This document shows positions 642 through 4,035 of a stretch of 4,845 nucleotides of DNA, in pieces; the first letter of the stretch is position 1; each line of letters opens with the position of its first letter. The DNA is from a virus (lineage: Duplodnaviria > Heunggongvirae > Uroviricota > Caudoviricetes), in the IMG/VR virus record IMGVR_UViG_2529292833_000009. One strand, 5' to 3'. The position numbers and the translations under genes were made by a program. Below the pieces are notes generated by a model. The model did no database searches. It was not told where the DNA came from and saw only the letters and a list, made by a program, of their open reading frames with translations.

Positions 642-2267
642 ATGGGTAAAGGCAGCAGTAAGGGGCATACCCCGCGCGAAGCGAAGGACAACCTGAAGTC
701 CACGCAGCTGCTGAGTGTGATCGATGCCATCAGCGAAGGGCCGGTTGAAGGTCCGGTGGATGGATTAAAAAGCGTGCTGCTGAACAGTACGCCGGTGCTG
801 GACACTGAGGGGAATACCAACATCTCCGGTGTCACGGTGGTGTTCCGTGCCGGTGAGCAGGAGCAGACACCGCCGGAGGGGTTTGAATCCTCCGGCTCCG
901 AGACGGTGCTGGGTACGGAAGTGAAATATGACACGCCGATCACCCGCACCATTACGTCTGCAAACATCGACCGTCTGCGCTTTACCTTCGGTGTGCAGGC
1001 ACTGGTGGAAACCACCTCAAAGGGGGACCGGAATCCGTCGGAAGTCCGCCTGCTGGTTCAGATCCAGCGTAATGGTGGCTGGGTGACGGAAAAAGACATC
1101 ACCATTAAGGGCAAAACCACCTCGCAGTATCTGGCCTCGGTGGTGGTGGGTAACCTGCCGCCGCGCCCGTTCAATATACGGATGCGCAGGATGACGCCGG
1201 ACAGCACCACAGACCAGCTGCAGAACAAAACGCTCTGGTCGTCATACACCGAAATTATCGATGTGAAACAGTGCTACCCGAACACGGCACTGGTCGGCGT
1301 GCAGGTGGACTCGGAGCAGTTCGGCAGCCAGCAGGTGAGCCGTAATTATCATCTGCGCGGGCGTATTCTGCAGGTGCCGTCGAATTATAACCCGCAGACG
1401 CGGCAATACAGCGGTATCTGGGACGGAACGTTTAAACCGGCATACAGCAACAACATGGCCTGGTGTCTGTGGGATATGCTGACCCATCCGCGCTACGGCA
1501 TGGGGAAACGTCTTGGTGCGGCAGATGTGGATAAATGGGCGTTGTATGTTATCGGCCAGTACTGCGACCAGTCAGTGCCGGACGGCTTTGGCGGCACGGA
1601 GCCGCGCATCACCTGTAATGCGTACCTGACCACACAGCGCAAGGCGTGGGATGTGCTCAGTGATTTCTGCTCGGCGATGCGCTGTATGCCGGTATGGAAC
1701 GGGCAGACGCTGACGTTCGTGCAGGACCGGCCGTCGGATAAGGTGTGGACCTATAACCGCAGTAATGTGGTGATGCCGGATGATGGCGCGCCGTTCCGCT
1801 ACAGTTTCAGCGCCCTGAAGGACCGCCATAATGCCGTTGAGGTGAACTGGATTGACCCGAACAACGGCTGGGAGACGGCGACAGAGCTTGTTGAAGATAC
1901 GCAGGCCATTGCCCGTTACGGTCGTAATGTCACGAAGATGGATGCCTTTGGTTGTACCAGCCGGGGGCAGGCACACCGCGCCGGGCTGTGGCTGATTAAA
2001 ACAGAACTGCTGGAAACGCAGACCGTGGACTTCAGCGTGGGTGCCGAAGGGCTTCGCCATGTACCGGGCGATGTCATTGAAATCTGCGATGATGACTATG
2101 CCGGTATCCGCACCGGCGGGCGCGTGCTGGCGGTAAACAGCCAGACCCGGACGCTGACGCTCGACCGTGAAATCACGCTGCCATCTTCCGGCACCACGCT
2201 GATAAGCCTGGTTGACGGGCAGGGGAGTCCGGTCAGCGTGGAGGTCAGTCCGTCACCGACGGCGTGA
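642..2267 (+). CDS. J: J N-terminal fragment (541 aa as it stands; truncated by the first frameshift)
   Basis: ORF-track entry 642..2267. Lambda J-like sequence runs up to ...GSPVSVEV, after which the frame 0 tail SPSPTA* is out-of-frame read-through following a 1-bp deletion near 2246. Confidence 0.85.
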   Translation: MGKGSSKGHTPREAKDNLKSTQLLSVIDAISEGPVEGPVDGLKSVLLNSTPVLDTEGNTNISGVTVVFRAGEQEQTPPEGFESSGSETVLGTEVKYDTPITRTITSANIDRLRFTFGVQALVETTSKGDRNPSEVRLLVQIQRNGGWVTEKDITIKGKTTSQYLASVVVGNLPPRPFNIRMRRMTPDSTTDQLQNKTLWSSYTEIIDVKQCYPNTALVGVQVDSEQFGSQQVSRNYHLRGRILQVPSNYNPQTRQYSGIWDGTFKPAYSNNMAWCLWDMLTHPRYGMGKRLGAADVDKWALYVIGQYCDQSVPDGFGGTEPRITCNAYLTTQRKAWDVLSDFCSAMRCMPVWNGQTLTFVQDRPSDKVWTYNRSNVVMPDDGAPFRYSFSALKDRHNAVEVNWIDPNNGWETATELVEDTQAIARYGRNVTKMDAFGCTSRGQAHRAGLWLIKTELLETQTVDFSVGAEGLRHVPGDVIEICDDDYAGIRTGGRVLAVNSQTRTLTLDREITLPSSGTTLISLVDGQGSPVSVEVSPSPTA

Positions 2268-2379
2268 AGGTGAAAGTGAGCCGTGTTCCTGACGGCGTTG
2301 CGAATACAGCGTTGGGGGCTGAAGCTGCCGACGTGCGCCAGCGCCTGTTCCGCTGCGTGAGTATCCGTGAGAACGAGAC

Positions 2380-4035
2380 GGCACGTATGCCATCACCGCC
2401 GTGCAGCATGTGCCGGAGAAAGAGGCCATCGTGGATAACGGGGCGCACTTTGACGGCGACCAGAGCGGCACGGTGAATGGTGTCACGCCGCCCGCGGTGC
2501 AGCACCTGACTGCCGAAGTCACCGCAGACAGCGGGGAGTATCAGGTACTGGCCCGCTGGGACACGCCGAAGGTGGTGAAGGGCGTGAGCTTTATGCTTCG
2601 CCTGACCGTGGCCGCGGATGAAGGCATTGAGCGGCTGGTCAGCACGGCCCGGACGGCGGAAACCACATACCGCTTCACGCAACTGGCGCTGGGGAACTAC
2701 AGGCTGACAGTCCGGGCAGTAAATGCCCGGGGACAGCAGGGAGACCCGGCGTCGGTATCGTTCCGGATTGCCGCCCCGGCAGCGCCGTCGCGGATTGAGC
2801 TGACACCGGGCTATTTTCAGATAACCGCCACGCCGCATCTTGCGGTTTATGATCCGACGGTACAGTTTGAGTTCTGGTTCTCGGAAAAGCGGATTGCGGA
2901 TATCAGGCAGGTTGAAACCACAGCCCGCTATCTTGGTACGGCGCTGTACTGGATAGCCGCCAGTATCAATATCAAACCGGGCCATGATTATTACTTTTAT
3001 ATCCGCAGTGTGAACACCGTTGGCAAATCGGCATTCGTGGAGGCCGTCGGTCGGGCGAGCGATGATGCGGAAGGTTACCTGGATTTTTTCAAAGGCAAGA
3101 TAACCGAATCCCATCTCGGTAAAGAGCTGCTGGAAAAAGTCGAGCTGACGGAGGATAACGCCAGCAGACTGGAGGAGTTTTCGAAAGAGTGGAAGGATGC
3201 CAACGATAAATGGAATGCCATGTGGGCTGTCAAAATTGAGCAGACCAAAGACGGCAAACATTATGTCGCGGGTATTGGCCTCAGTATGGAGGACACGGAG
3301 GAAGGCAAACTGAGCCAGTTTCTGGTTGCCGCTAACCGTATCGCGTTTATTGACCCGGCAAACGGGAATGAAACGCCGATGTTTGTGGCGCAGGGCAACC
3401 AGATATTCATGAACGACGTGTTCCTGAAACGCCTGACGGCACCCACCATTACCAGCGGTGGCAGTCCTCCGGTATTTTCCCTGACATCAGACGGAAAGCT
3501 GACCGCTAAAAATGCGGATATCAGTGGCAGTGTGAATGCGAACTCAGGGACGCTCAACAATGTCACGATTAATGAGAACTGTCAGATTAAGGGGAAACTG
3601 TCAGCCAACCAGATTGAAGGTGATATTGTCAAAACGGTCAGCAAGTCTTTCCCCCGCACGAACAGTTATGCCAGTGGCACCATCACGGTAAGAATCAGTG
3701 ATGATCAGAAATTTGACCGGCAGGTCATGATACCGCCAGTGTTATTCCGCGGTGGTAAGCATGAGAATTTCAACAGTAATAACCAACAGTCATACTGGTA
3801 TTCAACCTGCCGGTTAAGAGTGACCCGCAATGGTCAGGAGATTTTTAATCAGTCCACGACGGATGCTCAGGGCGTATTTTCCTCCGTTATAGATATGCCT
3901 GCCGGACAGGGGACGCTGACACTGACATTCACCGTATCTTCATCAGGAGCGAATAACTGGACACCAACAACCAGTATCAGCGATCTGCTGGTTGTGGTGA
4001 TGAAAAAATCCACAGCAGGTATCAGTATCAGCTGA
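2380..4035 (+). CDS. J: J C-terminal fragment (frame 1), including FN3-like repeats and a divergent C-terminal receptor-binding region; lacks an authentic start
   Basis: Frame 1 is open after the TGA at 2368..2370. Codons from 2380 read [26 protein letters not shown], matching recalled lambda gpJ. The ORF-track start at 2401 (GTG) is an internal Val codon. The frame ends at TGA 4033..4035. Confidence 0.8.

Follow-up and report, generated by a model that had tools for sequence, protein, structure and literature searches.

Five one-base gaps in a lambda-type prophage J gene: very probable consensus errors from co-assembled paralogs

The DNA analyzed here (‘the window’; 4,845 nucleotides) is, from position 1 to 4845 on the plus strand, the entire draft contig AQDY01000070.1 of GCA_000355395.2. 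It comes from Escherichia coli strain 2756500, a CS7 ETEC isolate from Bangladesh (reads SRR446742; Table S1 of PMC5469772), whose draft was assembled from HiSeq 100-bp Illumina reads with Celera Assembler (PMC5469772); its authors ran SPAdes as well. The contig is short, stands alone and covers a multi-copy lambdoid tail region, all of whose genes lie on the plus strand. The first, at 10..582, encodes tail assembly protein I (190 aa; Pfam Lambda_tail_I); it is intact, and 100% identical to that of copy A, the first of three paralogous copies in ETEC 90-9280 that we describe later. Next, at 642..4035, comes the lambda-type tail tip, or host specificity, gene J, identified from its open reading frames, its Pfam domains and the annotated gpJ of its relatives, and five bases short as deposited. 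It is followed at 4102..4701 by an intact gene for an Ail/Lom outer-membrane protein (199 aa; ORF, Pfam and annotation of relatives) and, at 4766..4845, by stf, the gene for the side tail fibre, of which the 5′ end, encoding the N-terminal domain, is present before the contig stops; this last assignment was made by mapping the relatives’ annotation onto the window.

As deposited, J is divided between two spurious products, each of 541 aa. The N-terminal one (EMW66700.1) is the open reading frame at 642..2267, which ends at its stop because the first of the missing bases shifts the frame; that translation halts at 2267 after 541 codons had been read correctly in an earlier note on this DNA, made from its sequence alone. 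The C-terminal one (EMW66702.1) occupies 2410..4035, within a longest open reading frame that begins at 2401. Between them the two fragments carry the Pfam domains FNIII-A_GpJ, Phage-tail_3, Ig_J, Ig_J_second, Phage_Tail_Tip and Ig_GpJ_C, all far above gathering scores. When the five bases are re-inserted, a single open reading frame of 1132 codons (3399 nt) results, which is the length of gpJ in relatives and agrees with the frame of about 1130 codons that the earlier note expected of the whole gene. The same note put two-thirds of J downstream of the break, where the true figure is about half (550 of 1132 codons). Domain set, K-I-J-lom-stf gene order and repaired length (~1132 aa) all identify the gene as a TipJ/gpJ of the lambda type, and in these respects it resembles lambda gpJ itself (NP_040600.1) and the gpJ of E. 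coli prophages. Many prophage J genes are 92–98% identical to the window at the nucleotide level; none of the intact or finished ones examined has the five one-base gaps that split J here.

The gaps themselves are real features of the sequence as deposited. Alignments, both pairwise and multiple, to lambda J, to phiSTEC1575-Stx2k, and to J of E. coli KSC64, TW10828, B27 and the three copies of ETEC 90-9280 all place them alike: compared with every relative aligned, the window is exactly one base short after each of 2245, 2301, 2312, 2333 and 2376, five −1 deletions spanning 132 bp, as the earlier note had seen in outline for positions 2244–2380. The first missing base (2245..2246) is the wobble base of a Val codon, GT[C/T], at which copy A has C and copies B and C have T. 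The second (2301..2302) is the wobble base of an Ala codon, GC[A/T], where A has A and the other two copies have T; the third (2312..2313) is that of a Val codon, GT[G/A], with G in copy A and A in B and C. The fourth (2333..2334) is the first base of a Leu codon, [C/T]TG, C in copy A and T in copies B and C. The fifth (2376..2377) is the wobble base of an Asp codon, GA[T/C], where copies A and B share T, and copy C has C. All five sites are synonymous polymorphisms, and insertion of either the A or the C set of alleles restores the same 1132-aa protein. Site 3 had been placed inside the G5 run at 2314..2318, which was taken for a shortened Trp-Glu pair. In every close relative, however, the G5 run is complete: the lineage has GT[G/A] TGG GGG CTG, and the base missing from the window is at the wobble position of the Val codon that precedes TGG. 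The misplacement arose because lambda has TGG GAG at that point.

Among finished genomes the nearest is that of ETEC 90-9280, in which one chromosome contains three copies of J (A, B and C). These are ~94–99% identical over their N-terminal two-thirds (~1–6% divergence in the first ~2.3 kb). The median among E. coli genomes is 2–3 J copies. Strain 2756500, to judge from its relatives, most likely carries several lambdoid prophages with near-identical J genes, as 90-9280 does. In ETEC 90-9280, ETEC-2264, LR882978 and B27, J copy A, lom and the beginning of stf match the plus strand of the window with 100% identity from 2377 to 4845. Within the C-terminal part of J, where the copies diverge, 3130..3350 is specific to copy A. 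Upstream of 2377 the window is a patchwork. In a four-way alignment, the contig tracks copy A at 579–804, C at 805–1178, A at 1256–1952, B/C at 1961–2135, and A again from 2412. The patch at 805..1178, in which copy C (or B) stands in place of A at 26 discriminating sites, is probably a chimeric segment of the consensus; that at 1961..2135, in which B/C replaces A at seven sites, lies directly upstream of the zone of five gaps. This A/C/A/BC/A mosaic was absent from finished genomes, the best of which matched at 99.2% and 99.3% identity.

The gaps fall in the last of these change-overs. The contig last follows C at 2135 and next follows A at 2412; in between, exactly five sites distinguish copy A from copy C, and all five are gaps. 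Position 2397, where A and C agree and only B differs, retains its base, and within 2136..2411 nothing but the five gaps separates the window from its closest relatives; there are no substitutions. The chance that five random deletions would coincide with the five A/C sites is ~7e-11.

A similar signature marks other drafts. Individual deletions of the window recur in ten further IMG/VR contigs, each of which has a J gene with 7–70 one-base deletions. Together with the window (n = 11 contigs) they contain 344 deletions and six insertions, ~57 deletions per insertion. With polymorphic sites defined from only eight intact J genes, 58% of the deletions fall at such sites, compared with 12% expected (P = 2e-90). 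Nine of the ten contigs trace to the same centre (IGS) and to Celera Assembler: the drafts of P0304777.13, P0299438.4, P0302293.10, P0304816.3, p0305293.4, P0299917.9, BCE002_MS12, 2735000 and 2749250. One of these, 2735000, is a CS7 strain from the same study as 2756500, and shows a different subset of deletions, seven of seven on inter-copy sites. The association with the pipeline also holds in an unbiased IMG/VR sample of J loci, gathered with an invariant 50-mer from between sites 1 and 2. In that sample, 103 of 129 loci have no indels, bases are missing from J at a rate of 2.3 per kb in the block of identifiers from the same centre and of 0.1 per kb elsewhere (Fisher P = 0.0025 for enrichment in the pipeline), and a few contigs from outside the batch have one or two single-base deletions each.

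Searches for the deletions elsewhere were negative. A 51-mer across sites 2–4 has no match in 5,426 complete E. coli genomes, in which none of the multi-site patterns tested, that is, of co-occurring deletions, was present. A 35-mer across sites 2–3 was absent from GTDB representative genomes, IMG/VR and JGI metagenomes. Single-site deletion patterns turned up only in contigs with the same, but heavier, error signature, and the exact 541-aa N-terminal fragment occurs on one contig among about 15 billion proteins. An inherited lineage of defective prophages was rejected on the absence of the multi-site patterns from all of these collections.

We consider it very likely, with a probability of about 0.94 on the sequence comparisons above, that the five frameshifts arose as errors in the consensus of a draft assembly in which reads from paralogous prophage J genes were assembled together, and not mutations. 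Several observations point to an artefact: the errors lie on inter-copy differences, the consensus is pieced together from different copies and agrees throughout with none of them, and the signature recurs in drafts from the same pipeline. Celera Assembler works by overlap, layout and consensus, and with 100-bp reads would tolerate a few mismatches per read, such that reads from different J copies could be stacked into one contig. The dominant copy would then shift along the contig, from A to C, to A, to B/C and back to A. Over 2136..2411, where the copy changes for the last time, A-type and C-type reads would both fail to dominate, and at each of the five A/C conflict columns the consensus step would output no base. 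This could come about in at least two ways: the mismatch might be laid out as two half-gapped columns, both of which are called as gaps; or an ambiguity code might be written, and later stripped.

In the literature we found general statements only, and no report of this base-dropping behaviour of Celera Assembler. Co-assembled repeat copies are known to give rise to correlated SNP columns (Phillippy, Schatz & Pop 2008, Genome Biol 9:R55, PMC2397507). In the collapsed or chimeric repeat mis-assemblies described there, as seemingly in the window, reads from near-identical copies enter one multi-alignment, their differences become conflict columns, the consensus fits no single copy, and a short contig results that is bounded by the repeat. 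The window differs in that its conflict columns yield a missing base rather than one of the alleles, and hence clustered frameshifts, an outcome absent from that paper. The Celera consensus of mixed alleles can, moreover, be a sequence that is found in no read (Levy et al. 2007, PMC1964779). The short-range mosaics at issue in that work, and in Denisov et al. 2008 as cited in PMC2639302, come from the same family of assemblers; the cases in these sources are diploid haplotypes in Sanger data, whereas in the window the ‘alleles’ would be paralogous prophage genes, the bacterium is haploid, the reads are 100-bp Illumina reads, and bases have been lost.

The principal alternative, which we regard as very improbable, is that J of strain 2756500 truly has the five −1 deletions, with the tail tip inactivated and the prophage defective, for example through aberrant processing of five heteroduplex mismatches during gene conversion between the J genes of co-resident prophages. 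Lambdoid J genes are indeed mosaic, and the contig switches allele type exactly here, as a recombination junction would. Against this, the multi-site patterns tested are missing from the 5,426 finished genomes and the fragment is confined to one contig; strain 2735000, which belongs to the same study, is affected at another subset of the same sites; and drafts from the same pipeline have up to 70 deletions per J, at ~57 per insertion. A gene with that many deletions cannot be functional or recently decayed. On the same grounds (no occurrence in finished genomes, a single contig, and a heavier signature in sibling drafts), the inactivated tail tip that the earlier note had offered as one of two explanations finds no support. 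To our knowledge, no recombination or mismatch-repair pathway (MutHLS, VSP) converts each mismatch into a one-base deletion. Were the deletions nonetheless real, they would represent a new outcome of recombination, a conversion heteroduplex in which every mismatch becomes a one-base deletion, and such a ‘mismatch-footprint’ cluster of frameshifts would mark the boundary of a conversion tract. We give this a slighter chance still.

In a variant of the artefact, the consensus would have failed in the same way, but the reads would have been in conflict because the culture was mixed or had been contaminated by a second strain. Mixed samples likewise produce correlated SNP columns (PMC2397507), and the MLST type of the genome is listed as ‘untypable’ in Table S1 (PMC5469772). 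Many independent isolates, however, show the signature, which is concentrated in a prophage gene of several copies, and a second strain is unnecessary because 90-9280 holds all three of the required J alleles in one chromosome. We therefore judge this origin of the reads to be highly unlikely, on a par with the recombination outcome just described.

An error of sequencing chemistry in a GC-rich, homopolymer-containing patch, independent of the paralogs, is the least credible of the readings that we weighed. The patch is somewhat GC-rich, as the earlier note remarked (0.63, compared with 0.565 for J), and it includes the G5 run, but none of the five gaps lies in a homopolymer of at least three, the G5 run that adjoins site 3 is intact, and chemistry leaves the match of all five deletions to A/C sites unexplained. 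Homopolymer or GC-compression error is ruled out in this way, and of the artefact that the note had proposed, assembly stands as strongly supported and the cause it named (the GC-rich patch and the G5 run) falls. In high-depth Illumina data, consensus indels are not expected at non-homopolymer sites; a 2015 sister study from the same centre reported a depth of over 200×.

Gradual decay into a pseudogene is also ruled out, and the tight clustering is, as was first noted, unlike it: there are only −1 events and no substitutions, and a single contig carries the lesions. Genuine decay, as in cryptic prophages such as Rac and Qin of E. coli K-12, is marked by substitutions at scattered positions, by insertions as well as deletions, by large deletions and by inserted IS elements, and its lesions are passed on to related strains. 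The window resembles such pseudogenes in having an interrupted tail gene, and differs in having five deletions, all on inter-paralog sites, in one draft. Programmed ribosomal frameshifting, or recoding, fails because the homologues are in a single frame here and five successive shifts would be required.

Almost certainly, then, the apparent defect is not a real feature of the prophage but a consensus artefact of co-assembled paralogs, and it is not to be scored as the inactivation of a prophage. Its value lies in data quality, and as a warning about databases, rather than in biology. A set of public ETEC drafts (Illumina, Celera Assembler, 2013), from a centre whose ETEC drafts number roughly 300, shows a systematic error signature in which single bases are lost where multi-copy prophage genes differ, giving rise to spurious truncated proteins (e.g. 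EMW66700.1, EMW66702.1, ENE59929.1 and EMZ70236.1). Such errors would inflate pseudogene counts, distort calls of prophage intactness and corrupt the typing of J (receptor-binding) alleles in the affected strains. Artefacts of this class might be flagged elsewhere by the same combination: frameshifts exactly on inter-paralog polymorphic sites, many more deletions than insertions, and a short contig bounded by repeats. The tenth of the contigs that share deletions with the window, L017, lies outside the nine drafts traced to the pipeline and has a milder form of the signature, with 11 deletions.

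The window (4,845 bases) covers the distal tail region of a lambdoid prophage, as judged by ORF calling, Pfam domains and the annotations of relatives. The last bases of K are followed by the tail assembly gene I (10..582), the tail-tip, or host-specificity, gene J (642..4035) and lom (4102..4701), all three identified by ORF, domain and relatives' annotation. The window ends 80 bases into the side tail fibre gene (4766..4845), which is placed from relatives' annotation. The ORF listing divides J into two, 642..2267 and 2401..4035, the first being the 541-aa fragment, ending at 2267, that the earlier note had predicted. 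We aligned J with those of lambda, phage phiSTEC1575-Stx2k, E. coli KSC64, TW10828 and B27, and with the three copies (A, B and C) in ETEC 90-9280. Single bases are missing after 2245, 2301, 2312, 2333 and 2376 (sites 1–5) in every alignment, and a 421-base query from the window covers 426 bases in all phage and complete E. coli matches. The five clustered frameshifts reported from the sequence alone are thus confirmed in the deposited record. With the bases restored, J is a single ORF of 3399 nt (1132 codons), as long as in the annotations of relatives. Two particulars need amending. The third loss had been put inside a run of five Gs; that run is complete, and what is missing is the third (wobble) base of the Val codon before it (lambda reads TGG GAG here; the window's lineage reads TGG GGG). 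And the part of J downstream of the lesions is about half, not two-thirds, of the gene.

The positions of the losses are not arbitrary. Relatives are polymorphic at all five, always synonymously (C/T, A/T, G/A, C/T and T/C). The nearest finished genome, that of ETEC O114:H49 strain 90-9280 from Bangladesh, is 100% identical over 2377..4845 and has three J copies. In a four-way alignment, the window tracks copy A over 579..804, copy C over 805..1178 (26 sites), copy A over 1256..1952, copies B/C over 1961..2135 (7 sites), and copy A again from 2412 to the end. The final switch lies between the last site of C type (2135) and the first of A type (2412). Within it, five positions and no others distinguish A from C, and these are the five lost bases. 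Position 2397, where B alone departs from the other two copies, retains its base. The probability that five random one-base deletions would all fall on those five sites in the 276-base interval is ∼7e-11. The A/C/A/C/A mosaic is absent from finished genomes, the best of which reach 99.2% over the window and 99.3% over 1180..2244. Judged by these alignments, the whole contig looks chimeric, 805–1178 and 1961–2135 following other J paralogs and the rest copy A. Position 992 agrees with copy B alone.

By exact-protein look-up, the window is the complete contig AQDY01000070.1 (4,845 bp) of draft assembly GCA_000355395.2. The 541-aa fragment (EMW66700.1, E. coli 2756500) occurs on a single contig in a collection of about 15 billion proteins. 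Short, stand-alone contigs are a typical assembly product over near-identical, multi-copy regions of this kind. In 90-9280, the copies diverge by roughly 1–6% over the first ∼2.3 kb of J (to about window 2980) and by roughly 1–4% in most of the K/I and lom–stf flanks, strong divergence being confined to the C-terminal, receptor-binding part. Strain 2756500 is a CS7 ETEC isolate from Bangladesh (AQDY00000000, reads SRR446742; Sahl et al. 2017, Table S1, PMC5469772), sequenced by Illumina HiSeq 2000 in 100-bp reads and assembled with Celera Assembler (same paper, methods). The divergence between J copies is plausibly low enough for an overlap-based assembler to accept between such reads. Table S1 lists the MLST of 2756500 as ‘untypable’, neighbouring entries being typable; errors in the assembly may be responsible here too, or a mixed sample.

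Reads of different J paralogs were almost certainly piled into one multi-alignment, in which the differences between copies would form correlated conflict columns; columns of this sort are a classical sign of repeat copies assembled together (Phillippy et al. 2008, PMC2397507). In Celera Assembler, the consensus of mixed alleles can be a sequence that no read contains (Levy et al. 2007, PMC1964779). The majority copy changes several times along the contig, and the five gaps lie exactly within the last change-over, where neither read population would clearly outnumber the other. There the consensus step may have given no base, either because a mismatch was split into two half-gapped columns, both called gap, or because an ambiguity symbol was written and stripped afterwards. 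Our literature search found no published account of consensus base loss of this kind. A mixed culture, rather than paralogs, could have supplied the conflicting reads and would be expected to leave the same artefact; it is unnecessary, because a single chromosome of a relative (ETEC 90-9280) carries all of the alleles.

A 51-mer across sites 2–4, which has no 28-mer in common with intact J genes, has no match in 5,426 complete E. coli genomes, and a 35-mer across sites 2–3 has none in GTDB representative genomes, IMG/VR or JGI metagenomes. Single-site patterns (sites 1, 4 and 5) match ten IMG/VR contigs, whose J genes have 7 to 70 one-base deletions apiece. Together with the window (n = 11), they total 344 deletions versus 6 insertions, and 58% of the deletions occur on sites variable among eight intact J genes, versus 12% expected (binomial P = 2e-90). 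A J carrying both 70 frameshifts and about 55 substitutions cannot exist as a biological gene. In two of the contigs (L013 and L017) frameshifts also affect the adjacent gene I, so the artefact extends beyond J. Nine of the ten contigs could be named through exact matches to their unique truncated proteins: E. coli P0304777.13, P0299438.4, P0302293.10, P0304816.3, p0305293.4, P0299917.9, BCE002_MS12, 2735000 and 2749250. The last two are in Table S1 of the 2017 study (PMC5469772); that paper mentions two other series as well as BCE002_MS12. A 2015 mBio study from the same institute (HiSeq2000, Celera Assembler, coverage >200x) names at least two of the ‘P0...’ series of isolates. In 2735000, also a CS7 ETEC from the 2017 study, each of the seven deletions coincides with a difference between copies A, B and C, but the subset is not the window's, as expected of stochastic assembly error and not of inherited mutation. 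The tenth contig, L017 (IMGVR_UViG_2713896799_000003), with a much later IMG genome ID, has a milder signature (11 deletions and 1 insertion), and the artefact may not be restricted to one pipeline.

As a control, we took an unbiased sample of 120 IMG/VR loci with the invariant 50-mer between sites 1 and 2. J is without any indel in 103 of the 129 IMG/VR loci examined. The block of IMG IDs that holds the identified genomes lost 75 bases in 32 kb, versus 25 in 237 kb for all other sources, 12 of these being one in-frame deletion (Fisher P = 0.0025, affected versus unaffected contigs). The J of L075 (IMGVR_UViG_2700989365_000006) has a single in-frame deletion of 12 bases, and this contig has two J-like matches about 1.2 kb apart; unlike the one-base artefacts, this has the look of a real structural variant or a duplication.

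A real event, such as abnormal processing of mismatches in a heteroduplex formed by gene conversion between prophages, would account for the position at an allele switch. We consider it very improbable: no finished genome combines even two of the five deletions, the signature seen across the pipeline is strong evidence against it, and we know of no repair pathway that resolves mismatches as one-base deletions. Chemistry error in a GC-rich patch containing a G5 run, as the earlier note had proposed, is contradicted by the positions of the deletions, none of which is in a homopolymer of three or more, the enrichment itself being real but modest (GC 0.63 versus 0.565 for J). Of the two outcomes that the note had left standing, artefact or inactivating mutation, the coincidence with inter-paralog sites and the pipeline-wide signature strongly favor the first. 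The note describes accurately a database sequence that is almost certainly itself in error, and there is almost certainly neither a defective prophage nor a new mutational phenomenon. Its only use is to caution against a class of public draft genomes and the spurious truncated proteins that come from them.

Elsewhere in the window, the I–J intergenic region (∼579–582) is without the IS66-family element (tnpA, tnpB and tnpC) that lies between I and J in its closest finished relatives, ETEC 90-9280, ETEC-2264 and LR882978 (1083–3791 of comparison locus L003). By eye, a GC-rich inverted repeat (gggcgtcagaaatgacgcc) followed by ttttttatt occurs directly 3' of J (about 4050–4080; region 4036–4101), and another (agcccgccggttcaggcgggc), followed by tttttt, directly 3' of lom (about 4728–4755; region 4702–4765). 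These look like putative intrinsic terminators on either side of the lom moron, an ordinary arrangement in lambdoid phages.
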